The notes: generated by a model not told the origin, from the letters alone. Numbered from the stretch's first letter, positions 1 to 57,084 are shown. The stretch is DNA of 64,000 bases from Candidatus Krumholzibacteriia bacterium (GCA_942492615.1 CALOFL010000004.1:4847-68846); one strand, 5' to 3'. A program made the numbers and translations.

Positions 1-567
1 TAGCAGGAGATGGAACTTGCTACGTTACCCAGGCTTTTTCGTGGAAAATAGCGAAGTACGATACCGAGGGTCGTTCGCTATTCCAAGAGGAGGTTTATGA
101 TCTTGGAGACAATTGGAATAAGCGTATGCAGTTGCGCGCGGTGTCCAGTTCCTCAGACCAACTGTTCCTAGTTTCTGTGGGGCCATCAGGGTCAGGTGGG
201 TCGGTTGAAGATAAGGCGATATCAGGTACTCTCCAATTGGTTCAGGGTGATCTCGTAAGAGTCCTGATGCGGACCGGTGTGCGGATTTCGATCCGGCCAC
301 AATTGATTTTGAATTTAGAAACATTCGAACTCTGGTCCGCGGTTGGGACATTAATTGGTCTGGTGAATTTGTGTGTGTGGCCCCCGATCGTGATTACTCC
401 TTTTAATAGGCAAGCCGGGAAGTACGGAAATGGAAACTGTCAGCTAGAAGGAATGGGGGGCTTTAAATCCTACGGGCGTCAGAGGCGAGTATTTCGACAA
501 TGAGAAACCCCAGCCTGCAGATCCCCAAGCCATTGTTTCCGTCCGTTGGCTAGGTGAGGACCGCCTG

Positions 568-900
568 ATGGTCCAATTTGAGGATCAATATGGCCGAAAA
601 GCGGCAAACTCAGCAGGGACTTTCGAGATTTTCCTAAGAGATGGAACTAGTTTGGGCGGATTTGAGATCCAGTGCCCGTACGACCCGAATCACGATAAGG
701 TTTTCATAAGGGAATCAACGATCGTGGTTATTCAAGGTGGAGAGGTGATCGCAAGGGCTTTTGTTAGGCAGCTATCCGATAATGATGTCAAGAATGACGA
801 TGAGTTTTCCACCCCTCCTCCCGAAGAAATACGGGTACGGTGCTACAACTTTAATTTTTTGGGTATGCAGCATTCGTTATCCAAGAGCAGTTTCAGATAA
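568..900 (+). CDS. hypothetical protein in low-GC region (no recognisable domain)
   Basis: 110-aa ORF in the low-GC left edge; no motif recognised; weak call. Confidence 0.2.
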   Translation: MVQFEDQYGRKAANSAGTFEIFLRDGTSLGGFEIQCPYDPNHDKVFIRESTIVVIQGGEVIARAFVRQLSDNDVKNDDEFSTPPPEEIRVRCYNFNFLGMQHSLSKSSFR

Positions 901-1012
901 CTGGTGTGATTTTGTGGTGGTTATTAAGGAATTTCTTGAATCCCTCCGTCTAAAAGGCATTGAAGCCCGGCAGTAGGCCAGTTGGATTGTTTGTTTAGAA
1001 GGACGAAGTCAA

Positions 1013-1285
1013 ATGAAGAAGTATGGAATGATCGTTCTTGCTGTTGTAACACTAATATTTACAGTTGCCCCACCCTCCGTTGCTCCGGCTGCTCCAGCTC
1101 CAGGTAGTTGTTTGGCAGCAATTACTTCACATTACAATGCCCAGCGGGATTGGAATGACTGCATGGACTATTGGGCGGGAAATGAATGGGTTCACGCTCA
1201 TGACATGTGCAGTACCTTGGAAACTGCCATGGATGCTGCACTTACTGCAATGATTTCGGCTTGTGACTTGGCGTTCACCCAGTAG
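1013..1285 (+). CDS. small secreted four-cysteine protein, paralog 1 (90 aa)
   Basis: RBS GAAGGA upstream of ATG; N-terminal signal peptide (MKKYGMIVLAVVTLIFTVAPPSVAPAAPAP); mature ~60 aa with 4 Cys at spacings 16/14/17; paralogous to ORF 1910..2221; followed by a strong intrinsic terminator. Confidence 0.55.
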   Translation: MKKYGMIVLAVVTLIFTVAPPSVAPAAPAPGSCLAAITSHYNAQRDWNDCMDYWAGNEWVHAHDMCSTLETAMDAALTAMISACDLAFTQ

Positions 1286-1294
1286 GGATTTTTG

Positions 1295-1327
1295 GGCCGC
1301 CGGATCCTACCGGCGGCCGTCGTTTTC
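1295..1327 (+). terminator. rho-independent terminator (GGCCGCCGG-ATCCTA-CCGGCGGCC + T-run)
   Basis: perfect 9-bp GC stem, 6-nt loop, followed by GTCGTTTT; directly after stop of 1013..1285. Confidence 0.5.
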
Positions 1328-1351
1328 CCATCCAACTATTCCTGACAATCC

Positions 1352-1570
1352 CTAATCGAATGCCGCAGTCACAATCTCCCGCCGCATCTTCGCGATGTTC
1401 TCGATCGGGATCTTCTTCGGACATACCGCCTCACACTCGCCATGGTTCGAGCAGTTGCTAAACCCGTCGTCGCCGTTCCGGGCGACCATCCGCAGGGCCC
1501 GCCGCGTCCGCTCGGGCCCGCCCTGAGGGAGGTAAACGAACTGGCCGACCTTCGCGCTCAGGAACAGCGA
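1352..1570 (-). pseudogene. diverged remnant of succinate dehydrogenase Fe-S subunit (sdhB) 3' end, ~72 codons
   Basis: C-terminal part of ORF 1352..1798 (…[72 protein letters not shown]) aligns at ~70% identity (52/72 by eye) to the C-terminus of intact SdhB at 4674..5432; the remnant is high-GC whereas its flanks are low-GC; the upstream part of the ORF has no Sdh similarity. Confidence 0.55.
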
Positions 1571-1850
1571 ACCCGATGGGTTTGGGTAAGTGAGAAAAGA
1601 TGGGGAGATGGTTACCAGCTCCAAATTCAGGCAACTGCACGATAATAATGGCAAAGAATACGCGAATTTTCTGCACCTCCAAGCTATGAAGTTAGAATTC
1701 GCTGCCGCAATTTGGGCGGCATTGGAAGTTTCGAACTGGAACGGGTAGTGGGTTTGAGTGATAGGATGATTGTTTATGAACCCATCTATTAACTTCAATC
1801 AATTTCGTAAATATTTGGAAAATTCCGACAACACAGATGTTGGCTATATT

Positions 1851-1878
1851 CGTTTAGCCGTGTTCGTTTAGCCGTGTC
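1851..1878. repeat. 14-bp tandem direct repeat (CGTTTAGCCGTGTT / CGTTTAGCCGTGTC)
   Basis: two adjacent near-identical 14-mers ~30 bp upstream of the start of the paralog-2 gene; possible regulator binding site or slippage duplication. Confidence 0.5.
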
Positions 1879-1909
1879 CATTGGGCACTAATCGCGTGGA
1901 GGATATGCT

Positions 1910-2221
1910 GTGAAAAAGCTAGGAATTGTCATTTGCACTGTTGCGCTTGTGGTTGTAGCAGTAGTTTCGCCGTCCGAAGCGCCTGCTGCTCCAGGAGGAG
2001 ACTTAGGTATTAACGGATGTGTAATTGCTGTCTCACAGTATTATGCTGCGTATAGTACATGGAGTAGTTGCATGGCCCAATGGGTTGGTAACGTTCCAGG
2101 GGGGCTTACGGGCCTAACGGCCGAAGATATGTGTTTTGATTTTAGTGAAGCCGCAGATGCAGCTCAAAATTATGCGAGCGGGGTCTGCGGTTGGTATGTT
2201 GATTTCGATCAAATGAACTAG
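1910..2221 (+). CDS. small secreted four-cysteine protein, paralog 2 (103 aa)
   Basis: GTG start 5 nt after GGAGGA; signal peptide MKKLGIVICTVALVVVAVVSPSEAPAAP; 4 Cys with spacings 16/19/17; shared motifs with paralog 1 (W..CM..W.GN, DMC, DAA); followed by an intrinsic terminator. Confidence 0.55.
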   Translation: MKKLGIVICTVALVVVAVVSPSEAPAAPGGDLGINGCVIAVSQYYAAYSTWSSCMAQWVGNVPGGLTGLTAEDMCFDFSEAADAAQNYASGVCGWYVDFDQMN

Positions 2222-2238
2222 TTTTTGGATATACGATA

Positions 2239-2275
2239 CGGCCGCCGGATCCCTCCGGCGGCCGTCCTCATTTCT
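2239..2275 (+). terminator. rho-independent terminator (CGGCCGCCGGA-TCCC-TCCGGCGGCCG + T-rich tail)
   Basis: 11-bp GC stem, 4-nt loop, followed by TCCTCATTTCT; the same stem core as the terminator after paralog 1. Confidence 0.5.
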
Positions 2276-2284
2276 AATCAACTA

Positions 2285-2360
2285 TTGCGAACTGGCACCT
2301 ACTTGAACGCCGCCCGCACGAAATCCCGCCGCTTGCGCGCTAAGTCCTCGACCAAGCTCT
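2285..2360 (-). pseudogene. second, shorter remnant of sdhB 3' end (~20 codons)
   Basis: minus-strand translation …ESLVEDLARKRRDFVRAAFK matches the SdhB C-terminus …[21 protein letters not shown]; DNA core TTGAACGCCGCCCGCACGAAATCCCGCCGCTTGCGCGC vs TTGAACGCCGCCCTGACGAACTCCCGCCGCATGCGCGC in intact sdhB. Confidence 0.35.
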
Positions 2361-2417
2361 CCAGGGACACACCGCCCCGCAACCGCCGCGGTCCGCGTCG
2401 ACATCGATGACTCCAGT

Positions 2418-4589
2418 TCACCGCACCGCCCGACTGACCTCGCGCCCCTCCGGATCCCATCGCACTTCCACACCCCGGGGCCGGCCACCCGACATCTCGC
2501 GGTACAGGCTCGGTTCGCCCCCGGGATGCCATTCCGTCCAGATGCCATCGGACACGGGCTGGCCGCGACTGTCGAGGCGAACCTGCACGATCGTGCTGAT
2601 GGCTCCGGAGGGGTGTTTTTCCACGGTGAATTTGGGTGTTTCAAAAGACGCCGCCGCACCACCCAGCTGGCCGCCGACCCGCGCCAGGAGCTCCTTGGTT
2701 TCCGGATGCCCCGGATCGATGGCGCGGGCTTCGAGCAGGTGGGAATAGGCGGCCGGGCCGTGCCCGCGTGACGCCAGGATCCCGCCCAGGATCCGGTGCG
2801 GTGCGTCGCGCTGTTCTCCCTGCCAGTAGACCGCCGCGAACAGCAGGTGGGCGCAGGCGAGTTCCACCTCCGGCGGTTGCCGGTCCAGGGCCCGCAGGCC
2901 GATCCGCCAGTGCGTGTCGGGCATGCCGGGATTGGCATTCAGGGCCAACCGGAAGTAGCGCTTCTCCTGCTCCAGATCACCGGTGGTCGCATACCAGGTG
3001 GCCAGGATGTTGGCCGCGGTCTTGACCGTCAGCGGATCCTCGTGGGGAAACTCCAGGGCCTGCCGGGCGGGACGAACGGCGTCCTCGGTCTTGCCGGACC
3101 ACGCCAGGACGGCCGCCAGGTTGGCCAGGGACCGCGCGCGCTTGGCGGGATCCAGCCGCTGCTCGATATTCTCGCCGGCCGTCCGCAATTGGTCCGGGGT
3201 CAGGCGGGCTGCGGGCAGCCCCGCGGTCGAAAGGACCGTCTGGGCCAGCTCCAGGGCGAGCAGACCATTGGCGCGGATCGTCGGGTGGACGTGATCGAGA
3301 AAAAATTCCTCGCCGGCGATCGCCGAGCCGAGTTCCTCCCGCGCCTTGTCGGCGATGAGCCGCTCGAAATCCACCACCGGCAGGTTCCGGTCCTGGGCGA
3401 CCGTCTCGATGCCGTTCATCATGACCGGTTGGATCCGCAGCGGACAGACATCCTCTTCGAGGGCCCGGTAGAAAGCCGTCCTGGCTTCCTCCTGGCGGCC
3501 CAGTAGCAGCAGGACCCGACCCCGGCGGTAATGGTGGTCCGCGTTGCGCGGATCCAGCGCCAGGGCGCGGTCCAGGTGCGCCAGCGCCGGCTCCAACTGT
3601 CCGGCTGCCAGGGCATCGGCGGCGGATGCGGCAGCGGCCGCGGACCGCGTCAGATCCTCCGCGGACAAGCCGTCGGTCGGCTGGCTCTTGAAGGGTGAAC
3701 AATCCTTGATGTTGACGGCCGGCTTCACGAGGACCATGGCTGCATCACTGCCGGCGGCCAGCCGGGCCATCCGGTCCAGGCTGATCACGAAATGTTCGCG
3801 GATCTGTGCGGCCAGCTTGTCGTCCCGCTGGTACGCTTCGGGCCCGAAATGCTCCAGCAGGGTATCGGCCTCCTCGGCGAGTTCGGCCTTGTCCGCCGGC
3901 GAACCGGGGGAGGTGATTCCCAGACCGTCGAGCAGGGAGTTCATCAGGGCCCAGGTCCGGGTGCGGGCCAGGAGGCCGGATACGGCCCTGACGAAGGCCG
4001 GTGTCGATTTCAGCGTGCGATAGGTGCGCTCTTCGAGAAACTCGTTCTGTCCGGAATAGACGATGAACAGATCGGGCTCGTAGCGGACGAGCTCTTCCAT
4101 CAGGTGGGCCACCCGGTAGCTCGCGTAGCTGACGGCGCCGACGTTGATGACCTCCCAGTCGGTCCCGGGGGCGGCCAGGGGCAGCAGTTCCCTGAGCCAG
4201 CCGGAGAACGAGCTGTTGTCGTCGAACGGCCGCCCGTAGGTGGTGGAACCCCCGAGGCAGAATATCCGATAGGTATTCGGTCCCTTGCGTGCGGGGAAAC
4301 GCTGGGGATTGAACAGCCGCTTGTTGGGGGCGGTCTCCAGGAACTTCGCGCCGGACGGTGCGGTGGTTTCGACAAAGAGGGGGACATTGCCGGCGAACCC
4401 CACGAAGGGATCGTCCTCGACGAGTACGGGCTCGACGCCTGCGGCCAGAAGGACAAGTTCGAGGAGGCCGAAGAACATCCCGACCATCAGGGCGCTCAGC
4501 AGGATCTTCTTCCACACGGGATGGTCGGGGGCGGGTGCATTCCCGTCCGCGGGCGCGCTGGTGTCAAAAAGAAGGCTCATTCGAAACAC
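2418..4589 (-). CDS. membrane-anchored protein with SGNH/GDSL-like hydrolase region and C-terminal TPR-like repeats (723 aa)
   Basis: N-terminal TM helix (LLSALMVGMFFGLLELVLLAAGV); region reminiscent of SGNH-fold (IVYSGQNEF…); several TPR-like helical repeats (ALALDPRNADHHYRRGRVLLLLGRQEEA…); host-like GC. Confidence 0.5.
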   Translation of the reverse strand: MFRMSLLFDTSAPADGNAPAPDHPVWKKILLSALMVGMFFGLLELVLLAAGVEPVLVEDDPFVGFAGNVPLFVETTAPSGAKFLETAPNKRLFNPQRFPARKGPNTYRIFCLGGSTTYGRPFDDNSSFSGWLRELLPLAAPGTDWEVINVGAVSYASYRVAHLMEELVRYEPDLFIVYSGQNEFLEERTYRTLKSTPAFVRAVSGLLARTRTWALMNSLLDGLGITSPGSPADKAELAEEADTLLEHFGPEAYQRDDKLAAQIREHFVISLDRMARLAAGSDAAMVLVKPAVNIKDCSPFKSQPTDGLSAEDLTRSAAAAASAADALAAGQLEPALAHLDRALALDPRNADHHYRRGRVLLLLGRQEEARTAFYRALEEDVCPLRIQPVMMNGIETVAQDRNLPVVDFERLIADKAREELGSAIAGEEFFLDHVHPTIRANGLLALELAQTVLSTAGLPAARLTPDQLRTAGENIEQRLDPAKRARSLANLAAVLAWSGKTEDAVRPARQALEFPHEDPLTVKTAANILATWYATTGDLEQEKRYFRLALNANPGMPDTHWRIGLRALDRQPPEVELACAHLLFAAVYWQGEQRDAPHRILGGILASRGHGPAAYSHLLEARAIDPGHPETKELLARVGGQLGGAAASFETPKFTVEKHPSGAISTIVQVRLDSRGQPVSDGIWTEWHPGGEPSLYREMSGGRPRGVEVRWDPEGREVSRAVR

Positions 4590-4611
4590 CTGTCCCAGTG
4601 CCGGTGTCCAA

Positions 4612-4652
4612 GGAAAAGGCGGCAGACTGGAAGGCCAATCCGCCGCTTTTCC
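4612..4652 (-). terminator. candidate intrinsic terminator downstream of sdhB
   Basis: imperfect GC hairpin (GGAAAAGCGGCGG…CTGCCGCCTTTTCC on minus strand) followed by a T-rich run, between the sdhB stop and the start of the 723-aa gene. Confidence 0.35.
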
Positions 4653-4673
4653 GTGGCCGTTGATAGGGTCATG

Positions 4674-5432
4674 CTACCCCTTGAACGCCGCCCTGACGAA
4701 CTCCCGCCGCATGCGCGCGATGTTCTCGATGGAGATCTCCTTGGGGCAGACCGCCTCGCATTCGCCGTGGTTCGAGCAGTCGCCGAAACCCTCGTCGTCC
4801 ATCTGCCCCACCATCAGCAGGGCCCGCCGCGTGCGCTCGGGCTCGCCCTGGGGCAGCCAGCTGAACTGGCTGATCTTGGCGCTGACAAACAGCGAGGCCG
4901 AAGCGTTGGGGCAGGCGGCCACGCAGGCGCCGCAGCCGATGCAGGCGGCCGCGTCCATGGCCTTGTCGGCGGCGTGCTTGGGGATCAGCTGATCGTTGCC
5001 GTCGGGCGCCGAACCCACGTTCATGGAGACGAAGCCGCCCTTGTTCTGGATCCGGTCGAAGGCCGAACGGTCGACCACCAGGTCCTGCAGGACGGGGAAG
5101 GGGCCGGCGCGGAACGGCTCGACGGTGATGGTGTCGCCGTCGTTGAAACTGCGCATGCGCACCTCGCAGGTGGTGCAGGCGGCATGCGTGCCGTGGGCGA
5201 CGCCGTTGATGACCAGGCCGCAGGTGCCGCAGATGCCCTCGCGGCAGTCGTTGTCGAACTCGACCGCCTTTTCGCCCTTCTTGACGAGGTCCTCGTTCAG
5301 GACATCGAGCATCTCGAGGAAGGACATCAGGGGCAGCACGTTCTCGACCGTGTAGTCGACGAAACGTCCCTTGTCCTGGCCGCGGTCCTGCCGCCATATC
5401 TTCAGATGAATCGTCATTGTCTTGTCGCTCAT
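4674..5432 (-). CDS. sdhB: succinate dehydrogenase / fumarate reductase iron-sulfur subunit
   Basis: 2Fe-2S and 4Fe-4S Cys clusters ([10 protein letters not shown]; [12 protein letters not shown]; [12 protein letters not shown]); operon position after sdhA. Confidence 0.9.
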
Positions 5433-5447
5433 GGGACCGTCCTTCCT

Positions 5448-7307
<1,860 letters not shown>

Positions 7308-7376
7308 GTGGCGGTCCCACTTGTCGGCCAGCGGGCCGCCGGAATCCTGGGATCGAGTTTGCTGTGGGTCGACATG

Positions 7377-8079
7377 CTAGTGACCTCCCGGCATGGCGTT
7401 CGGATCGCCGAAGAGGAACAGGTAGACGGGCAGGACGATGAAGCCGATCGCCAGCAGCACGGCGAACACCAGGGCGACGCGGACCAGCACCGGCAGGTAC
7501 CTGTCGTTGGCCAGGCCCAGGGACTGGAAGGCGCTCCAGGAGCCGTGCCGCAGGTGCAGGCCCAGCAGGATCATCGCCACCACGGTGAAGATGGTGAAGG
7601 CCGGCCCCTTGAAGACGGTCGCGACGGTCTTGTAGAGGTTCTTCACGCCGTGCTGGTCGACATCGTGGTTGCCGAACTTGAACAGGTAGATGTGGCCGAT
7701 GACGAATACCAGGATGATCGCGCCGGAGTAGATCATCGTACGCGAGGCCAATGTCTTGCGGCTCTTGCCGCCGGCGTTGGCGTTGTACTTGTAGCCCTGC
7801 TGGCGGGCTTTGCGCTTGTCGGTCCAGGCCACGGTGATGGCGGAGATCATGTGGAAAAGGAAGATGATCGAGCAGGCCGACCTCGAAGGCGTAGATGAGC
7901 CAGCCGTGGGCGGCGTTTTCGAGGAAGTGGGCGTACTCGTTGAAGGCGCCGGGGCCGATGAAGATGGTCAGATTACCGAGGAGATGGACGATGACGAATC
8001 CGATGAGAGCGATGCCAGTCAGCCCGGTGATCACCTTCTTTCCGATCGACGACCAGGCGGCCGAACCGATAGAACTCAT
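7377..8079 (-). CDS. sdhC: succinate dehydrogenase cytochrome b subunit, apparently frameshifted
   Basis: membrane N-terminus (MSSIGSAAWSSIGKKVITGLTGIALIGFVIVHLLGNL…, start 8079) in one frame; hydrophobic C-terminal 157 aa (7850..7377) in another; the frame switch lies near 7855-7880 with no stop-free single frame. Confidence 0.6.
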
Positions 8080-8373
8080 GAATTCGCACTCCTGGATTCG
8101 GGTCCGCAGAAGCCTGGGTTGACAGGGCCGATTAGAACATAAGTCGGAGGCCCGGACAGCACAATTTTTGATTTAACAGGTATGGGGGAAAATCATTGGT
8201 GGGTTCGTTTTGCGCCACGGTCAGGGCGCGGGGGGTTGATGCCCGCGGCGATTTGTTCTATAATGATCGGGAAGGCAGTTGGCCCCGTGCGACGCCTTCG
8301 CCCCCCTGAACGATCGCTTGCGTTTCCAGGCGAATATGCAGCCGTTTACTTCTGGTCGTGTCAGGAGAATGCC

Positions 8374-9015
8374 ATGTCCCTATCCTCCTTCAATCCCCTG
8401 GTGAATCGTCGAATCGCGGGCCCCCTGGTCCTTGTTCCCCTGCTGTTCATGCTGGGCGGGTGTTCCCTGTTCGGCATCGCCACCAAGGGCAACCTGAAGG
8501 AATTCTCCGAAGAGCAGGCCGCCCGGGACGAGGCGCAGCAGGCCCAGCTGCAGCAGATGGGCGAGCAGCTGCGCACCGTCGAAAGTGGGCTGCAGGCCAG
8601 CCTGGCGGCGCTGGCGGACGAGAACCGGCTGCGGGACGAGGAGCAGGCCGCGCTGAAAGCCAACATGCAGGCGGCCCAGATCCAGGTCCAGGCCGTGCTC
8701 GCGGACCTGGAATCCCTGGTGGGCGTGGTCGAAGTGGCCCGCGCCGACAGCCGCAGCGCCATCAAGATGCAGCAGGACGAGATCTACGCCGAACGGGAGC
8801 GCCTCCAGCAGCGCGTGGTCGCGCTGGATGCCCTGATCCGCAGCTGGCAGGACGACCAGCCCGGGGCCGTGTCGCAGCAGACGGACCCGGTCATCCTGCG
8901 GTCGCTGGTGCCCGAGCAGCCCGAGCAGACGCTCCGGTCGCCGCGGCGCAACGACGCCACCGACGCTTCCAGCGCCGGCGAGGACGAGACCTCCGTCTGG
9001 AGCCGGAACCGCTAG
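8374..9015 (+). CDS. coiled-coil lipoprotein (hypothetical)
   Basis: internal ATG at 8374 gives a signal peptide plus lipobox (LFMLGGCS); long Q/A/E-rich coiled-coil; the upstream part of ORF 8182 has no plausible start context. Confidence 0.45.
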   Translation: MSLSSFNPLVNRRIAGPLVLVPLLFMLGGCSLFGIATKGNLKEFSEEQAARDEAQQAQLQQMGEQLRTVESGLQASLAALADENRLRDEEQAALKANMQAAQIQVQAVLADLESLVGVVEVARADSRSAIKMQQDEIYAERERLQQRVVALDALIRSWQDDQPGAVSQQTDPVILRSLVPEQPEQTLRSPRRNDATDASSAGEDETSVWSRNR

Positions 9016-9033
9016 GCACCGGCGTCGCATCGG

Positions 9034-9075
9034 AAAAGAAGAGGCCGCGTCCTGCCGGACGCGGCCTTTCTCGTC
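9034..9075. terminator. bidirectional intrinsic terminator between convergent genes
   Basis: AGGCCGCGTCC-TGCC-GGACGCGGCCT hairpin flanked by A-run and T-run. Confidence 0.4.
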
Positions 9076-9091
9076 AAATGGTTGCGGCGCT

Positions 9092-9874
9092 CTACAGAGG
9101 CTGTCCGCACCCGACCAATTCAGTGCCCTCGGCCGCATAGTTGGGGCCGGTGAAGGTCCAGGCGGCGTTGCCCTGGCCGTCGTAGGTGGCGTCCATCCGG
9201 TAGGGGGCCAGGTCGACGAAGGCCGTGCCGCTGGGGCAGCCTTCGGGCTGGATCATCAGGTCCATGCCCCAGGCCATGTGGAATGCGGCCCGTTCGCTCT
9301 GGCTGCCGTTGGACTGGTAGGCCGAGACGTTGGCGTCACCGGTTCCGTCCACGTCGTAGCCGCCGTCCTGGCGGTAGGCGACGAGCATGGTCGTGGCCAT
9401 GTCGAACTCGATGTTGGCCACGACGCCGTCCTCGGCCATGTTCATGGTCATGCCGCTGCCGGCGCGGTATTCCATCTCGGTGGCGCCCACGGACGAGGTC
9501 AGCGGACCTTCGGCGTTGCGGAACTGGATCCAGACCGAAGCCCGGATCTCGCCGGTGGTCGTCGGCGGGTCACCTTCCGAGAGGTCGAGGGTCACATCGT
9601 AGACCCAGGCCATCTGCTGGGGATCCCACTCGGGCTGTTCGCCGGCCTTGGCGAACGTCCCCTGCGTGAAGTCTCCGTCGGAGACGTAGGGGATGTCCGC
9701 GGCCATGGAGTTGATCATATCCAGGGCCTGAACGGCGAATTCTTCGGCCGTTGCCGAATCGACGCTGTTGGTGGTCGTCGGGCTGGCGGGATCATCGCTG
9801 CCGCAGCCGACCAGAGCGAACAGACTGGTGAGCAGCAGGCTCATCAGGACAAATTTGCTGGCATTCCGCATGGT
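9092..9874 (-). other. lipoprotein-like module with its own RBS, ATG, signal peptide and lipobox, in frame with the upstream RND
   Basis: GGAG 8 nt upstream of ATG at 9874; MRNASKFVLMSLLLTSLFALVGCGS lipobox; could be an independent 261-aa gene whose upstream stop was lost. Confidence 0.4.
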
Positions 9875-12800
9875 ATGGGACTCCTCGCTTTGGCCGTCAT
9901 GGCCCACGGACCGGGCGGATTCGTGCCGGAATGCACGCAAGGGCCGGACAATCACTGCCGGACCCTGGTAAGCAAGAAACAGACCTGGCTGAGGAACCGC
10001 TAAGTGGAGCGGGGAGCCTTCCGTCTGTGGCGACAGGACCTCTGTTGACCCGGCCTTGGCAGCGCCGCGCCGGCGGAGCCAGCGGCCCAAGCGGGCCAGG
10101 CCCCAGCCCCAGCGCGTGAACATCCAGTACAGAGCCGGCAGCGCACTGAGGATCAGCACGGTGCTGCTGCCCAGACCGCCGATGGAACTGAGCGCCAGGT
10201 TCTCCCAGATGTCCTTGCCGGCGGTGGCGTCCTTCTTGTAGAGCAGCGGCAGCAGACCGGCGATCGTCGTGCCGCTGGTCAGCAGGATCGAACGCATCTG
10301 GATGCGGGTGCCGTCGATGATCGCCCGGCTGAGAACCTTCTGGCGTATCGCGACCGGCAGGCGCCACAGGTCGAACCCGCCCAGGCGGCGCTTGACGGGG
10401 ATCTGGCCGTCCTGGTCGCCCACGGGGAAGTCGCCCTCCTCGACAATTTCCCGCACCTGGAGCCGGAACCGGTTGATCAGCAGGATGGCGTTGTTGACCA
10501 CGATGCCGAACATCAGGATCAGGCCGATCTTGGCCGACGAGTCGAACTCGCTGCCGGTGGCCCAGAAGATGCCGCCGACCCCGGACAGCGCCATGGGGAT
10601 GGACAGCAGCACGAGCAGGGGCAGGAAAAAGCTTTCGAACATGGCCGCCAGCGCCATGAAGATGAACGCCAGGGTCAGCCACAACGTCTGCTTGAGCTCC
10701 TCTTCCTCCTCTTCGGTGATCTGCTGGCCGCTCATGTCCTCGGCCGTGTAGCCGTACGGCAGCTGGATGCCGGCCATGACGTCCTCGATGTACTGTCGAC
10801 GCATGCGGTCGGTGCCGATGTACTCCCAGTTGATCATCTGGCTGTAGCGCTGATCGTGGCGGTTGATGGAGCTGATCTCCGGCCGGCTCTCGATGCTGAT
10901 CAGCCGCCCGAGCTGCACCTTCTGCCCGCGGGCCGTGGTCATGGTCCGGCCGAGCACCTGGTCGTATTCGATGGACTCGGAGTCGTCGAAGGTCAGCATC
11001 AGCCGCTGGTCTTCGCCTTCGACCACCATGTGCCAGGGGTTTTCGACCCCCAGCAGGCGCCGGATGTGGCCCATGACCTCCATCATGCTCAGGCGGTGCG
11101 ACGCCAGGGCATCGCGGTCCAGGATGATGACGGTCTCATCGGTGGCGTTGCGGCTGAAGCGGTCGCCGCTGGTCAGCCGGGGGTTGCGCACCCGGCGGTT
11201 CCTTTCCAGCCGTTCCAGCGCCCCGTCGGTGATCGCCTTGAGTTCCTTGCTGTTGTAGCCGGTGATGCGGATGGTGGAGTTGCTCATGCCGCCGCCGCGG
11301 CCGCCCTTCATGTAGGGGTCGCCGAAGCCGTTGATCCAGATGAACATGCCGCCGAGCTCCTCGGCCAGCACGATGAACTTGTTGCGGAACATCTCCGGGT
11401 ACGCCGTCTGGAGCAGCTCGTCGTCGAATTCGAGGTTGATCCAGGCGCGATTCTGGTAGGCGCCGCTGCGCATGTGGGCGCCTTCGGGCAGGGGCAGCAC
11501 CTCGGTCTCGAACAGCTTGATGGTCTCGCTCGAGAGCTTGACGTCGGTGCCGACGGGGCGCTCGCAGTAGACGACGATCTGTTCCCTGGACTGCGGCCGC
11601 CAGAAACCGCCCGTGCGGACCTTGTCCTTGAAGACGAAGAAGGTGCCGACGAACAGGCCGACGGTGATCAGAACCGGCAGGTACCAGAAACGCAGGTGCC
11701 CGCGGGTCAGCTGCTGCACGTAGCTGACGAAGATGCCCACGGCCAGCAGCAGGCCGCCGAGGACGCCGATCCAGGGCAGGATCTCCTGGGCGGTGAAGCG
11801 TCCTTTCCAGACCCAGGCCCCGATGAAGGCGATGATCGCCAGCAGCACCACGCCCAGCCCCCAGCGCCAGACCATGGCGAATCCCTGCAGGCCGAACTCG
11901 TCGTCGGCGGCGCGGGTGGTCCGCATCTCCTTTTCGGCCGGACCCTTGAGGGCGACGGGGATCCAGGCGAAGGCGACGAAGATCGAAGCCAGCATGGCGA
12001 TACCGACGCTCACGGCCAGGGGCACGTAGAACAGGCTCAGCCGGTCGGTCATGAAGATGAACGACAGGAACGCCACGACCGTGGTCAGGGTGGTGGCCAT
12101 GATCGGGAAAGCGACCTCGCGGGTGCCCCTGATCAGGGCGCGGCGCGAGTCGCCGCCGTGATTGCCGGACAGCCGGCGGTGGATCGCGTCGAGGACCAGG
12201 ATGCTGTTGTCCAGCAGCATGCCGAAGCAGACGGTCAGCCCGCTGATGGTGATGAAGTTGACCGACACCCCGAAGAAGTAGAACAGCGACAGGCAGATGA
12301 CGATGGCCAGCAGGATGGAGAAGATCACGATGCCCGTCAGCCGGACCTGCTTCAGGGCGATCGCCAGCATGATGAACAGCAGCCCCAGGATCACCAGGGA
12401 ACGGATCACCAGTTCCTCCAGCTTGTCTTCTAGTTCTTCGCCCTCGTCCTGGTCGACCTCGAACGTGACGGCGAAGGGGGCTTCGGCCTGGATCCGGGGC
12501 AGCTCCTCGCGCAGGCGGCGGCTGACGACGATGGAATTCTGCCCGCTGCGTTTGGTGATGTTCAGGGTGATCACGTTCTGGCCGTTGATGCGGCTGAAGT
12601 AGGAGATGTCCTCGAAGTCCTCCTGGATGACGGCGACGTGGCCCAGGGTGATCGGCTGCCCGCCGAGATTGCTGAGCACCGTCTCCTCGAGCATGCGCAG
12701 GGAGACGGAGTCCTGCACGCTGACGGTCAGCTCGCGTCCGCTGCGGCGCACGGCCCCGGCCGGGATGATGTCGTCCAGGGCGTTGATCCGGTTGGCGATC

Positions 12801-27901: not shown

Positions 27902-28363
27902 CTACTCCAGCTCCGTCAACTGCCGGAGGTTGGACTGCCCGTCCTCGTGCATGGTTTTGATCAGGTCCGCCAGCGTGAAGCTGGTCCAGAATTCCTTCAT
28001 CCGGGCGCTCAGCAGGGTCCAGATCGAGCGCGTCAGGCAGCCGTCGGATCTTTCGCAGACCTCGGGCTCGAGCACGCAGTCGACCAGGGTGGTGTGCGAA
28101 TCCAGCGCGGTGATGATCTCCCAGAGGTTGATGTCCTCCGGCGGGCGGGTCAGGGAGTAACCGCCGCGAACACCCTTGCGGCTGGAGATCAGGTCGGCCT
28201 TGCGTAGGGTGCCGACCACCTGCTCGAGGTATTTGCCACTGATTTCCTGGGTTTCGCTGATGGCGCTGATGGGCACCGGATCTCCGTTGTAGCCGTCGGC
28301 GATCTGGAGGATGGCCCTCAAGCCGTATCGTACCTTGGTGTTGACCTTCATGTCCGTTGGCAC
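27902..28363 (-). CDS. Rrf2-family transcriptional regulator (IscR/NsrR-like)
   Basis: N-terminal wHTH (TKVRYGLRAILQIADGYNGDPVPISAISETQEISGKYLEQVV) and three clustered Cys (CVLEPEVCERSDGC) typical of Fe-S-binding Rrf2 proteins. Confidence 0.8.
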   Translation of the reverse strand: MPTDMKVNTKVRYGLRAILQIADGYNGDPVPISAISETQEISGKYLEQVVGTLRKADLISSRKGVRGGYSLTRPPEDINLWEIITALDSHTTLVDCVLEPEVCERSDGCLTRSIWTLLSARMKEFWTSFTLADLIKTMHEDGQSNLRQLTELE

Positions 28364-28694
28364 CTCCGGGTGGTCGCAGCTGGGCGGGCTCTTCGGTATG
28401 CACTAGGATATTTCGTCGCCATCGGCGAACTACAGGCAGTGGAGGACCCCGTATTACGATCAGTTCTTATGTAACACCCGGGCGCGACCAACTGCGAGGT
28501 GCAATATCAATCAAACGAAAGGTCCTGGCGCTTACAGGTCTTTTAGCTAAATGTGTAAAAGGCAATGTATTGGATTGGCCCGCTTCCGAAAACCCCGGAG
28601 TTGTGGACATCCCGTGCGGGGGTCCTATCCTGTGCGAAGTATTTCCATTTTCTATCTGCTTGGGCTACACTATTTATTGGAACGGGGACCTGCC

Positions 28695-29729
28695 ATGCAT
28701 GCCGAAGATCGCCGCGCCTTCATTCGTTCGCTGCCCCTGGCGGACATCCACCGTCATTTCGACGGCTCCATCCGGCCGGAAACGCTGTGGGAGCTGTCGG
28801 AAAAGTACTACAGCGCCGTGCCGGGGCTGGACTTCGAGCAGTTCCGCCACTACCTGCAGTGGGACGACAGCCTGGACAACACCCTGCTCGACTACCTCGA
28901 CAAGTTCCACGTCCCGCTGCAGTACACCCAGTTCTACGACAACATCCGGCGCATCGCCTACGAGCTGGCCGAGGACGCCTGGAACGACGGCGTGCGGCTG
29001 CTGGAGCTGCGCATGAATCCCCTGATCCACCGCCGGGCCAGATTGACGACCCGCCAGGTCATCGCCGCGACACGGAAGGGCTTTTCCACCTTCGGGGCCG
29101 AACATCCGGAATTCAAGACCGGGATCATCGTCATCGCCATGAGAAACCACGGCGGCAACATGGCCCGCATCCTGTTGCGGGAGGTCATCGGCGAGAAGGA
29201 GGAATTCCACGACGGCATCGGGGTGATCGGTTTCGACATCGCCGGCCACGAGGCGCCCTATCCGCCGCTGCTGTTCAAGGATGCCTACGATCTGGCCACC
29301 CAGATGGGCCTGAAGAAGACCGCCCACGCGGGGGAGAGCGAAGGGCCGGAACGCATCTGGGAGGCGCTGGACAACCTGGGGCCCGACCGCATCGGGCACG
29401 GCACCAGCGCCGGGCAGGATCCCGAGCTCATCCGACGCCTGGCCGCCGACGGCATCTACCTGGAGGTCTGTCTGTCCTCCAACCTCCAGACCGGCGCCGT
29501 CGCCAGTCTGGCCGACCATCCGTTGCCCCGTTTCCTCGATGCGGGCGTCAAGGTGGCCCTCTGCACCGACAATCCGACCGTCAGCAGCACCAGCCTGACC
29601 CGGGAATACGAACTGGCCATGGAGACGTTCGGATTGACGGAAAACGACGTGGTCGATCTGGCGCGGATGTCCTGCCAGGGCACGTTCCTGGCCGCGGGGT
29701 GCCACTGTCAGTCCCGGCCGACCGACTGA
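28695..29729 (+). CDS. add: adenosine deaminase-family metallohydrolase
   Basis: motifs HRHFDGS, GFDIAGHE, HAGE, RIGHG, SSNLQT, CTDN; start moved to the internal ATG at 28695, before which the ORF has no sensible N-terminus. Confidence 0.7.
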   Translation: MHAEDRRAFIRSLPLADIHRHFDGSIRPETLWELSEKYYSAVPGLDFEQFRHYLQWDDSLDNTLLDYLDKFHVPLQYTQFYDNIRRIAYELAEDAWNDGVRLLELRMNPLIHRRARLTTRQVIAATRKGFSTFGAEHPEFKTGIIVIAMRNHGGNMARILLREVIGEKEEFHDGIGVIGFDIAGHEAPYPPLLFKDAYDLATQMGLKKTAHAGESEGPERIWEALDNLGPDRIGHGTSAGQDPELIRRLAADGIYLEVCLSSNLQTGAVASLADHPLPRFLDAGVKVALCTDNPTVSSTSLTREYELAMETFGLTENDVVDLARMSCQGTFLAAGCHCQSRPTD

Positions 29730-54270: not shown

Positions 54271-56363
54271 GGCGCGGCTCCCGCAGGTACGGCTTGAAGC
54301 CAGCGATCGCCCTGCTTCTGGGGTGCTGGCTGGCCTGGGGACCCGGGCGGGTGCTGGCGCAGTCCGGGGACGGCGCGGCGGCCGCCGATTCCCTCGCCGC
54401 GGCGGCCGACACGTCCACCACGACGATGAGCGCCATGGAGAAGGCCCTGGCCGAGGCCACCACGGGCTCGGCCGACGCACAGGCCACGACGCAGGTCGCC
54501 GCGGACGCAGGACCGTTTTTCGTCAGTCTCAAGAACGCGCCCAAGGCCGGGGCCAAGGCCAACGTCCGGCAGTTCACCTATTACGGCGAGCTGGTGACCG
54601 ACCTCAAGTTCCGCCGGAACTCGAGCGTGAAGAACAATCTGGGCTGGTCCTGGGAGGACTACCGCAAGCAGGACAAGACGGTCGAGCGCTGGGACAACGT
54701 GTTCTCCTATCAGCTCGGCCAGATGCTGCCGTTGACGACCAAGCTCGACGCCACCTGGAACTGGAGCGAGGACAAGACCACCAACACAGCGGGCGTCGCC
54801 AACGTGTCTGCCCGCGACCAGAAACGGATCCAGTTCAGCGGTTTCAAGAGCAACTTCGCGACCGGGTCCCTGGTGAACATCGCCCGTTTTTCGGCGGGCG
54901 TCACCGACCTGCGCAGCGTGAACCTGAACCAGAACAACGATGTCCTCGAGGGCCTGCTCGACGCCAACTGGCAGAGCAGCCTGGAGATCACCGAAGGGGT
55001 GGCCATTGCCGGCCGGGTCTACGGACAGGTCGGCCAGGGGGAGCGGTCGTTGAGCGGCGCGGACAGTCCGTCGTCCGCCCAGGGCGATACCGTGGGCTTC
55101 GGCGTGTACTACGACCGCTCCACGGCAAACGGCCGGGTCTCGATAGCCCGCAGCAATTTCCGCAAGAAGTACCTGGACTTCAAGAAGAACACCAACGGCC
55201 TGATCGACACCGTCGGCATCGACGAGGCGAACAAGGTCGTACAGGAGCTCGAAACCAAGGACGCCCTGGGCGTGGAACTGGTGAACAACTTCCGGGTGGG
55301 ACGGCTGGGCTTCAACACGCGGCTGACCCGCGACACCGAGGACCAGGACTACGCGGCCAGCGGCATCGGGCTGAGGGAACGCTACCAGGACATGATGGAC
55401 CTGGGCTTGACCTTCGCCGTCGGCCGCGACTCCTTCTCGGTGAACTACAACTACGTCTGGCGCTGGGACGATCAGCAGTTCAAGGGGGCCACCAGCCCGC
55501 GCGGACGCCAGTACACGAAGGACCGCGACTACGATTTCAACTACACCCGCCGCTTCTTCAAGAAGACCGATCTGAGTCTCCGCTACCACCAGGGTCTCGT
55601 GCAGGACATCGCCCAGAACCAGCACAACGAGAACGACAAGGACCGCCTCCAGACGGATTTCAGCGCCAAGCTGGAACGCAACTGGGTCGGGAAATTCAGG
55701 GCCAACATGGTCTACTCGTTCGGCCGGATAAACGACCTGTCGATCCGGTCGACCCGGTCGTCCAACAACAACGAGCGCGACTCCTACGAGATTTCCCCCG
55801 GCTACGGCTGGGACCTGGCGCCCTGGCTGAGCCTGGACCAGAGCTACCGGGTCTACATCCAGTACACGGACTACGACTATTCGGATCTCGTATCCGCAAC
55901 CCGCAAGGACAACTACAACAAGCGCGGCAACCTGGCCACGCGGGTGAACATCCGGCCGACCAGCCGCTTGGAACTGAAGGTCCGGCACGACTACAACAAG
56001 CGGTTTTCCGCCACCAAGCTCGGGGTCAGCAGTACGGGAGACCCCTTCTACAACCGTGACGAGAACCAGACCATCTCCAAGATCGATCTCGGCTTCCGGT
56101 TCGAGGCCGTTCCCGGCGTGACCCTGGAGGGCGCGACCTACCGGACCCGCGACAAGCGGGTCACTTTCGGGCAGACCGAACAGGAGAACATCAATTTTTC
56201 GGGGGAGATGTGGGTCGGGACGGTGGTACGACAGAAATGGGGCAAACAGAATCCGGTGGAACTTTATGCCATGGTGCGGAAGTATAATGCTTTCGGGCCC
56301 AGCGTGACGGAAACCAGCGCGGACTACTGGGAAGCCGACGCGTGGCTGAAATGGGAGTTTTGA
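54267..56363 (+). CDS. large outer-membrane beta-barrel-like protein (hypothetical)
   Basis: GTG overlaps the rsmA stop; signal peptide (LKPAIALLLGCWLAWGPGRVLAQ); long region of alternating amphipathic beta-strand-like segments ending …AWLKWEF (aromatic C-terminal residue typical of OMPs). Confidence 0.45.
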   Translation: MRRGSRRYGLKPAIALLLGCWLAWGPGRVLAQSGDGAAAADSLAAAADTSTTTMSAMEKALAEATTGSADAQATTQVAADAGPFFVSLKNAPKAGAKANVRQFTYYGELVTDLKFRRNSSVKNNLGWSWEDYRKQDKTVERWDNVFSYQLGQMLPLTTKLDATWNWSEDKTTNTAGVANVSARDQKRIQFSGFKSNFATGSLVNIARFSAGVTDLRSVNLNQNNDVLEGLLDANWQSSLEITEGVAIAGRVYGQVGQGERSLSGADSPSSAQGDTVGFGVYYDRSTANGRVSIARSNFRKKYLDFKKNTNGLIDTVGIDEANKVVQELETKDALGVELVNNFRVGRLGFNTRLTRDTEDQDYAASGIGLRERYQDMMDLGLTFAVGRDSFSVNYNYVWRWDDQQFKGATSPRGRQYTKDRDYDFNYTRRFFKKTDLSLRYHQGLVQDIAQNQHNENDKDRLQTDFSAKLERNWVGKFRANMVYSFGRINDLSIRSTRSSNNNERDSYEISPGYGWDLAPWLSLDQSYRVYIQYTDYDYSDLVSATRKDNYNKRGNLATRVNIRPTSRLELKVRHDYNKRFSATKLGVSSTGDPFYNRDENQTISKIDLGFRFEAVPGVTLEGATYRTRDKRVTFGQTEQENINFSGEMWVGTVVRQKWGKQNPVELYAMVRKYNAFGPSVTETSADYWEADAWLKWEF

Positions 56364-56980
56364 TGAACACGTCACCTGCGCGTCTGCTGTTGAGCGCGAT
56401 CCTGTCGACGCTGGTCGTCCTGTTGTCGGGGTGCCTGTTTTCGCCGCGTGAACCGGAACCGCCCGGGTCGGGTGAGCAGATCACCTACCTGCCACGAAGC
56501 AGCCCGGCCAACGTCTGGGCCAACATCGAAACCTCCCTGGAGGCGGCCAATGCGCAGGGCTGGGAGGACAACACCAGCCAGGTTGAGTTCCAGTACGTGC
56601 CCGACGACGGGACCCGGAGCGCCTTTCCGGGCATCGCCTGGGATCTGTGGCGGCGTCCCGAGGAAGTGAATTTCATCAACAATTTCTACAACAACGGGGT
56701 GACCATAACAGCGCAAATGAGGAACGACGAGTTCACCATTCCCGAGAATTCCGGCACCGAAGTCATATGGGAAGACGTCATTTACGATCTTTCGGTCACG
56801 AACAACGCCGACAGTTCGACCACCCGCTACCGGGCCAGTGCGGACATAACTTTTAGACTTGAGGGCAATTTTTGGTATATTTACCTCTGGCGGGACCTAC
56901 AGGGCGAAAGCCCACCGGAAGGCGGGGGCCAGTTATCCACCATGGGGGTGTTGCGCGGAACATTTGGTAGCACTAGATAG
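56363..56980 (+). CDS. lipoprotein, first of a tandem paralogous pair
   Basis: TGATG overlap with the OMP stop; lipobox LLSGCLFSP; paralogous to 57085..57699. Confidence 0.5.
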   Translation: MNTSPARLLLSAILSTLVVLLSGCLFSPREPEPPGSGEQITYLPRSSPANVWANIETSLEAANAQGWEDNTSQVEFQYVPDDGTRSAFPGIAWDLWRRPEEVNFINNFYNNGVTITAQMRNDEFTIPENSGTEVIWEDVIYDLSVTNNADSSTTRYRASADITFRLEGNFWYIYLWRDLQGESPPEGGGQLSTMGVLRGTFGSTR

Positions 56981-57084
56981 CTCGATATGTTAAAATAGGG
57001 GATCATTCTCCCTCAATAAAAAGCGGGCTTCTCGTAACACCACCCCTGAAAGCCGGGGAAGCCCAGGCCTGCTGGAGGACAACG

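Follow-up and report, generated by a model that had tools for sequence, protein, structure and literature searches.

Displaced 3'-end copies of sdhB behind the intact gene in a Candidatus Krumholzibacteriia genome: possible scars of successive DNA additions

Downstream of the intact sdhB gene of a Candidatus Krumholzibacteriia bacterium lie two diverged copies of the 3' end of that gene, of different lengths, each of which opens a larger repeated module. The copies themselves are without function and are non-functional partial versions of the sdhB 3' end. Because they belong to these larger repeated modules, the structure is best read from its sequence as a locus-level rearrangement and not as two free pseudogenes. 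Our tentative explanation, which could well be right but which we hold to be short of probable, is that DNA was added twice in succession where the sdhB 3' end meets its terminator, and that the copies are the scars of these events. The locus was analyzed within a window of 64 kb, the whole stretch of DNA under study, to which all coordinates below refer unless a related locus is named.

Results

The resident sdhB gene (4674..5432, minus strand; ORF call) is intact, encodes 252 aa, and is the last gene of sdhCAB, which runs on the minus strand of the window. Its product is 100% identical to P0001 and 84-87% identical to the SdhB proteins of Candidatus Krumholzibacteriia MAGs. It is followed by a terminator hairpin at 4619..4646 (minus strand), recovered by the terminator scan with a fold of -32.9 kcal/mol and by comparison of downstream flanks. 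This hairpin is of the GCGGCGG...GCCGCC type found in the related loci L001 and L004, unlike the hairpins behind the two displaced copies, and the same comparison of flanks assigns the KG-stop ending of the resident gene to the L001/L004 type. Between sdhB and the nearer displaced copy lies a GC-rich gene of 723 aa (2418..4589, minus strand; ORF call and Pfam), the GC content of which is host-like and the product of which combines an N-terminal TM segment, a split GDSL/SGNH hydrolase domain, TPR repeats, and a repeat-like C-terminal tail; none of the 86 related loci has a homologue of it adjoining sdhB. Toward the left edge of the window, the GC content is about 48% over positions 1..2280 outside the island formed by the longer displaced copy, against 62-72% per kb elsewhere. 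Two more dips in GC were noted at 28001..29000 (0.60) and 56001..57000 (0.58), on a background of 0.62-0.72. ARAGORN returned no tRNA or tmRNA gene over the whole 64 kb, and the low-GC DNA at the left edge is thus not tied to a tRNA site within the window.

The longer displaced fragment, rem1, occupies 1352..1590 on the minus strand and retains 78 codons plus a stop (1352..1354), with no indel and no internal stop. In a blastn comparison, positions 1358..1586 align without gaps to sdhB 4683..4911, with 178/229 nt identical (78%, E 1e-49); the identity at the protein level is 72% over 76 residues, and the homology extends to about 1590 (YPNPSGSLF against CPNASASLF). An earlier note on this DNA had given this fragment about 72 codons at 1352..1570; the in-frame copy with its intact third Cys motif stands, and only its extent needed correction. 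The shorter fragment, rem2, lies at 2299..2395 on the minus strand and comprises about 31 codons with one frameshift and a stop at 2299..2301. Its positions 2302..2395 match sdhB 4680..4774 at 75/95 nt (79%, E 4e-18, blastn), with one 1-nt indel near 2362. For this copy, too, the earlier reading was right about its presence and wrong about its bounds: of the roughly 20 codons placed at 2285..2360, the portion 2285..2298 is spacer, and about 35 nt of frame-shifted homology (2361..2395) had been missed. Both alignments being significant, the central claim of two diverged partial copies of different lengths is upheld. The three sdhB 3' ends (resident, rem1, and rem2) are all co-oriented on the minus strand and are 66-79% identical to each other; no further SdhB-like stretch is found in the 64 kb. 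A weak tblastn match that extended rem2 into the end of the 723-aa ORF (2364..2468, 31% identity) was discarded as chance similarity to a repeat motif.

An ORF of 148 aa at 1352..1798 (minus strand) is present in the ORF calls, as had been stated, and joins rem1 to the antisense strand of a truncated paralogue of the ORF at 568..900 (ORF110, described below). It is probably no gene. Its N-terminal extension had been described as low in GC, which it is; its nature as the antisense of that truncated paralogue is new. The remnants might nevertheless be thought functional, either because the 148-aa ORF is expressed as a small Fe-S peptide or because the fragments act as silent cassettes that vary the SdhB C terminus by gene conversion. 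We find this scarcely credible, even though rem1 has an open frame and an intact third Cys motif and a 90-aa call of the ORF is held as a predicted protein in a public protein collection (P0121). We took a functional Fe-S product to require a 2Fe-2S domain, the motifs CxxCxxCxxxCP and CxxxxxCxxxCP, and a family score above threshold. The ORF, like rem1, has the third motif alone: the N-terminal 2Fe-2S domain is missing, as is all of the second Cys cluster, whose last cysteine position reads Y in rem1. In the SdhB structure, the three remaining cysteines cannot complete a 4Fe-4S or a 3Fe-4S cluster. All Pfam matches fall under the gathering score, the best being Fer4_8 at 22.7 against a cut-off of 27, and no promoter-like site was found for the ORF. 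With the 2Fe-2S domain and second cluster absent and the Pfam scores below threshold, it appears very unlikely that the peptide is functional, and a working version of the truncated ferredoxin-like peptide suggested earlier is not supported. The N-terminal extension that runs antisense to a gene fragment, the frameshift in rem2, and the stop carried by the remnant of a related locus (L090, below) weigh in the same direction, and we see no biological rationale for varying a cytoplasmic Fe-S subunit.

Each remnant is the first part of a module that reads, in the orientation of sdhB, remnant, spacer, hairpin, and a convergent gene for a small secreted protein, and the two modules are homologous to each other throughout. 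The spacers measure 33-35 nt and have AATAGTTG...GAC in common. The module hairpin has a 9-bp stem (GGCCGCCGG-loop-CCGGCGGCC), is 93% identical between its copies, and occurs in only these two copies in the 64 kb: hairpin 1 at 1295..1318 (plus strand; terminator scan and fold), the terminator of sp1, and its homologue hairpin 2 at 2238..2265 (plus strand), the terminator of sp2. By comparison of downstream flanks, both are of the type that serves as the native sdhB terminator in L090. Searches with the module hairpin gave no more than two unrelated terminator-like matches in metagenomes and none in viral contigs. The genes sp1 (1013..1285, plus strand; 90 aa, ORF call) and sp2 (1910..2221, plus strand; 103 aa, convergent with its remnant) encode paralogous small secreted proteins with four cysteines each, which are 34% identical (E 5e-14). 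The two proteins share a conserved signal peptide, an APAAP linker, and the four cysteines, and constitute an orphan family in low-GC DNA; homologues were found neither in 5.8 billion proteins nor, by profile, in 1.84 billion cluster representatives.

The homology between the modules extends into a further gene. ORF110 is full-length at 568..900 (plus strand), and its truncated paralogue at 1597..1713 (plus strand) is cut at the rem1 junction, 1590/1591; from the correspondence between the two, the duplicated unit has its far boundary at about 727-733. Positions 1597..1713 and 733..851 are 61% identical over 118 nt, with a protein match of E 0.001 and a local alignment score of 23 against 10.2 +/- 1.2 (maximum 16) in 500 shuffles. 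Unit 2 therefore ends in a truncated ORF110 copy that abuts the 5' end of rem1 at 1590/1591, and unit 1 (about 727..1590) directly adjoins unit 2 (1591 onward); no unique DNA intervenes, and the homology of the units is colinear, with offsets of 862-947 nt. Such a layout invites explanation by local tandem duplication, whereby an illegitimate or unequal exchange between sister chromosomes doubled a 0.9-kb segment (sdhB 3' end, terminator, sp gene, and part of ORF110), the copies diverged in place, and the 723-aa gene arrived later through a second rearrangement. The head-to-tail units and a junction that joins the interior of sdhB to the middle of ORF110 are the classic signature of this process, and the near-identical copies in two other genomes (L092 and L061, below) show that copies can begin identical to the resident gene. 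However, the head-to-tail arrangement is seen only for the event that left rem1 and not for the one involving the 723-aa gene, which tandem duplication leaves unexplained. Moreover, the divergence of the sp genes (34% identical at the aa level) and of the ORF110 piece (61% at the nt level) exceeds what the decay of the remnant predicts. We consider this explanation unlikely, the ancestry of rem1 being a further difficulty for it.

Over a block of 234 nt, rem1 is 77% identical to the resident gene and 82% identical to the alleles of loci L089 and L090. At informative sites, it agrees with L089 and not with the resident 23 times and with the resident and not with L089 10 times, and the corresponding counts for L090 versus the resident are 16 and 5. 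Even upstream of the rem2 boundary, rem1 is 75% identical to the resident as opposed to 82% to L089, which runs counter to a local tandem origin. An NJ tree of the 234 nt groups rem1 with L089 and the L090 remnant, and the resident with L001/L004, with bootstrap values of 53-73% at the key nodes. The last 58 nt of rem2, on the other hand, are 81% identical to the resident versus 60-74% to other alleles. The proposal in the earlier note that two separate events were involved is borne out by these different affinities, rem1 clustering with L089/L090-type alleles and the end of rem2 being nearest to the resident. So is its view that rem1 is no recent copy of the resident gene, and the origin in another lineage that it raised for phylogenetic placement agrees with the tree at moderate NJ support.

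The comparison of rem1 with the resident gene at the nucleotide and protein levels (78% and 72%), which had likewise been proposed together with dN/dS, yields a dN/dS of 0.24; the value against L089 is 0.21, and pairs of functional alleles give 0.11-0.32. In the third Cys motif, rem1 differs from the resident by six synonymous and zero non-synonymous changes. These figures suggest that rem1 diverged mostly under purifying selection. Given the dN/dS, the lack of any indel or stop in 234 nt, and the synonymous-only changes in the Cys motif, rem1 is probably what remains of a once-functional allele that belonged to a different but related lineage and was cut off fairly recently, and not a long-decayed local copy. 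On a signal as short as 234 nt, and therefore with moderate and not decisive strength, rem1 and the resident gene do not appear to descend from the same sequence. A dN/dS of about 0.2 without indels is a misfit with the 20-25% of neutral decay that tandem duplication followed by divergence in place would entail.

Along sdhCAB itself, the closest relative switches when window positions 4600..7900 are compared with L090, L001, L004, and L018: L090 is nearest over most of sdhA, but over 5426..5650 and the final 100 nt of sdhB L001/L004 take its place. This switching suggests frequent allelic recombination among these lineages. When the last 100 nt of the resident gene were tested for a foreign origin, the informative sites stood at 5 versus 13, against 56 versus 36 in the remaining sdhB, a comparator-dependent result that is suggestive with L090/L001 and not with L018/L007.

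Displaced sdhB ends recur in other genomes. The site is unoccupied, with a single sdhB 3' end, in 85 of the 86 related loci, and the gene content downstream of sdhB varies among the loci without a remnant. In the closest relative, L090 (ENA ERZ25039514 contig_89752; 87.7% nt identity over sdhCAB), the same hairpin stands behind the intact sdhB, and next comes a low-GC gene in convergent orientation with a T9SS sorting tail. A unique stretch of 1.7 kb (45-53% GC) separates these from the 487-nt, stop-bearing sdhB remnant, which has its own hairpin and another T9SS-tail gene behind it. The repeat measures 829 nt at 76.7% identity (487 nt of sdhB, the hairpin, and the 3' end of a T9SS-tail gene) and reaches 250 nt into the convergent gene. 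As it flanks 1.7 kb of unique DNA, it is no plain tandem duplication, which further disfavors that process as the general explanation. L090 contains no integrase or mobility gene, its whole low-GC region included. Three proteins with a T9SS sorting domain at the C terminus (FlgD_ig/Por_Secre_tail) are encoded in the low-GC (44-53%) DNA at 5758..11970 of this locus, one of them with an apparent metalloprotease-like HxxGHxxG motif; several frameshifts in the stretch suggest long-read errors.

A second instance, L092 (ENA ERZ27250939 k141_1753933, 1..4818), has an extra sdhB 3' end of 203 nt that matches its sdhB at 99% identity and lies 3.3 kb from it. Here sdhB is present from about codon 13 through its stop, and sdhA is absent upstream; the opposite strand carries three genes of outer-membrane or phosphoesterase type between sdhB and the copy. 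The ends of the contig repeat each other, its first 110 nt being identical to its last 110, as in a 4.7-kb circle or tandem unit. L092 could represent a circular intermediate or an amplified unit. The third, L061 (KSB1 bacterium OFTM72, JAJDAG010000097.1, 6753..7600), is an independent and recent instance in another phylum: an antitoxin and PIN-domain toxin pair (6833..7478) separates the stop of sdhB from a 104-nt duplicate of its 3' end at 7492..7595, the last 63 nt of which, up to the stop codon, are identical to sdhB. Other short SdhB-like proteins were rejected as candidate remnants, P0141/L091 and P0132/L094 as contig-edge fragments and P0136/L093 as a frame-shifted full gene.

The recurrence also bears on whether the structure is an artefact, produced when a metagenome assembler fused variants from different strains across conserved sdhB sequence. 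The window does come from a metagenome-assembled genome, there are several related strains whose sdhB genes are 80-90% identical, and the 110-nt terminal repeat of L092 is suspicious. Against this, the junctions at 1590/1591 and 2396-2417 lie outside shared sequence and lead from the interior of sdhB into unrelated DNA, where no shared k-mer could have made them; the copies are only 66-79% identical to each other; and the layout is shared by four assemblies that were made in different projects and with different assemblers. An artefact is accordingly very improbable.

The use of one gene end in four genomes from two phyla raises site-specific integration of the type known for prophage e14 at icd as a serious contender, if still a somewhat unlikely one. 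Elements with an attP mimicking the sdhB 3' end, perhaps with its terminator, would have integrated twice in tandem, each supplying a new gene end and displacing the old one, and the integrase would have been lost or, as the window ends inside low-GC DNA, may lie to the left of it. The layout of an intact target with a co-oriented partial 3' copy downstream of the insert agrees with icd/icdC, the cargo is low in GC or consists of a toxin-antitoxin pair, as is typical of mobile DNA, relatives with empty sites exist, and the identical last 63 nt of L061 up to the stop resemble a core site. Yet in none of the four cases (the window, L090, L092, and L061) does the DNA separating the copies contain an integrase or other mobility gene, and a Pfam scan of the ORFs in 1..4600 returned GDSL/TPR domains only and no integrase. 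The repeats are not confined to an att site and run into the cargo, reaching the sp gene and ORF110 at the present locus and the T9SS tail in the case of L090. Exact matches of the remnants to the resident region are no longer than 14-16 nt in the window, as compared with maxima of 23 in L090, 63 in L061, and 114 in L092, with the qualification that old events may have lost a core. Finally, the low-GC positions 1..2300 have no match in phage and plasmid collections. The 5' boundaries of the remnants coincide pairwise, rem1 with L092 and rem2 with L061, which is not significant with five remnants, and no shared junction motif was seen at these boundaries.

Discussion

The reading that we tentatively prefer, two additive recombination events at the sdhB end, would proceed as follows. 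An incoming block from a related Krumholzibacteriia lineage, starting with its own copy of the sdhB 3' end, would pair with the resident sdhB through the homology of the 3' ends and would be added, not exchanged. The route could be either a Campbell-type single crossover of a circularised fragment or a homology-anchored unequal recombination between chromatids. In either case sdhB would be kept whole, with the earlier 3' end, its terminator, and the downstream genes displaced further downstream. The first event would have brought in about 0.9 kb, comprising at least 234 nt of the sdhB 3' end, the spacer, the hairpin, sp2, and part of ORF110, and would have left behind rem1 with its hairpin, sp1, and ORF110. 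In the second, the cargo would have been the 723-aa gene, which arrived together with a different terminator and no less than 95 nt of sdhB 3' end, and the trace left behind would be rem2. The direction of the events, the donor, and the recombination mechanism are what we infer from the structure.

Additive recombination would account at once for modules that are homologous as wholes, for a clade-typical terminator behind each copy, for the signature of selection in rem1, for remnants of variable length, and for the lack of recombinase genes. In particular, it is favored by a repeat that comprises whole modules, beyond a piece of the gene. There is also a documented precedent in transformation-triggered merodiploidy, which arises via alternative pairing of partly repeated donor DNA (PMC3784515). 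On the opposite side, a donor locus in which sdhB is followed by the 723-aa gene or by the sp genes was not found. Additive homologous integration requires circularisation or inter-sister pairing, and, to our knowledge, homologous integration that adds DNA instead of replacing it has rarely been documented in nature. The cargo beside the remnants has 45-50% GC in a genome of 66% GC, which suggests a source more distant than a close relative, and the integrase search at this locus covers the window, which ends inside low-GC DNA, to the left of which an integrase or more sdhB remnants may lie.

A bolder idea, and a long shot at present, is that the sdhB 3' end and its terminator hairpin are the dedicated attachment site of an undescribed cassette-accretion system in Krumholzibacteriota and KSB1. 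Such a system, which would either lack an integrase or be mobilised in trans, would pile up compact groups of accessory genes (secreted proteins, T9SS substrates, and toxin-antitoxin pairs) behind an essential gene and leave a ladder of gene-end copies, somewhat like integrons or tycheposons at their respective sites.

Whatever the mechanism, the sdhB end emerges as a recurrent hotspot of insertion or recombination in Krumholzibacteriota, a poorly known phylum, and in KSB1. The remnants are dated scars, from which the order and the source of gene gains can be read. They also carry a warning for annotation, in that short ORFs labeled "SdhB-like" or "4Fe-4S" downstream of sdhB are scars and not genes. 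Should the recurrence have a specific mechanism behind it, the sdhB end would be a new attachment site for accessory DNA beside an essential gene; otherwise, the remnants are an ordinary by-product of genome plasticity.

As a class, the feature is an ordinary and known one, displaced gene-end pseudogenes at an insertion hotspot; sdhB is new as the site, and no description of it in this role was found in the searched literature. The closest known analogue in outcome would be icd/icdC at prophage e14, where a 163-bp displaced 3' fragment lies at the far end of the element (PMC6379469; bioRxiv 10.64898/2026.06.14.732165). At e14 and phage 21 of E. coli K-12, as at the sdhB locus, an essential TCA-cycle gene remains intact with the insert carrying the replacement 3' end, and the old 3' end stays as a co-oriented pseudogene, icdC, at the far side of the insert. 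However, e14 encodes an integrase and is able to excise, whereas the sdhB locus shows no recombinase. Also unlike the case of e14, the sdhB locus has two nested scars, its repeats extend into the terminator and neighboring genes, and its sdhB copies are 21-23% diverged with no long identical core.

A second parallel is the accretion of islands at the 3' ends of tRNA and tmRNA genes and at protein-coding genes such as dusA (PMC4482086), where a conserved gene end is likewise reused, partial copies of the target are left between successive inserts, and relatives have empty sites. These islands differ from the sdhB locus in having a dedicated integrase beside the target and repeats confined to the att site, and those at dusA differ further in using the 5' end of the gene (PMC4482086). 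The third parallel is transformation-triggered merodiploidy (Johnston et al. 2013, PMC3784515). The duplications documented there are unstable and extend over 100-900 kb between repeats derived from IS elements, whereas the units at sdhB measure 0.9-2.5 kb, are diverged, and are apparently fixed. Nevertheless, both involve a partial duplication that can arise through alternative pairing of the donor DNA without any need for a site-specific recombinase, and in both the essential gene is left intact beside an altered copy (PMC3784515).
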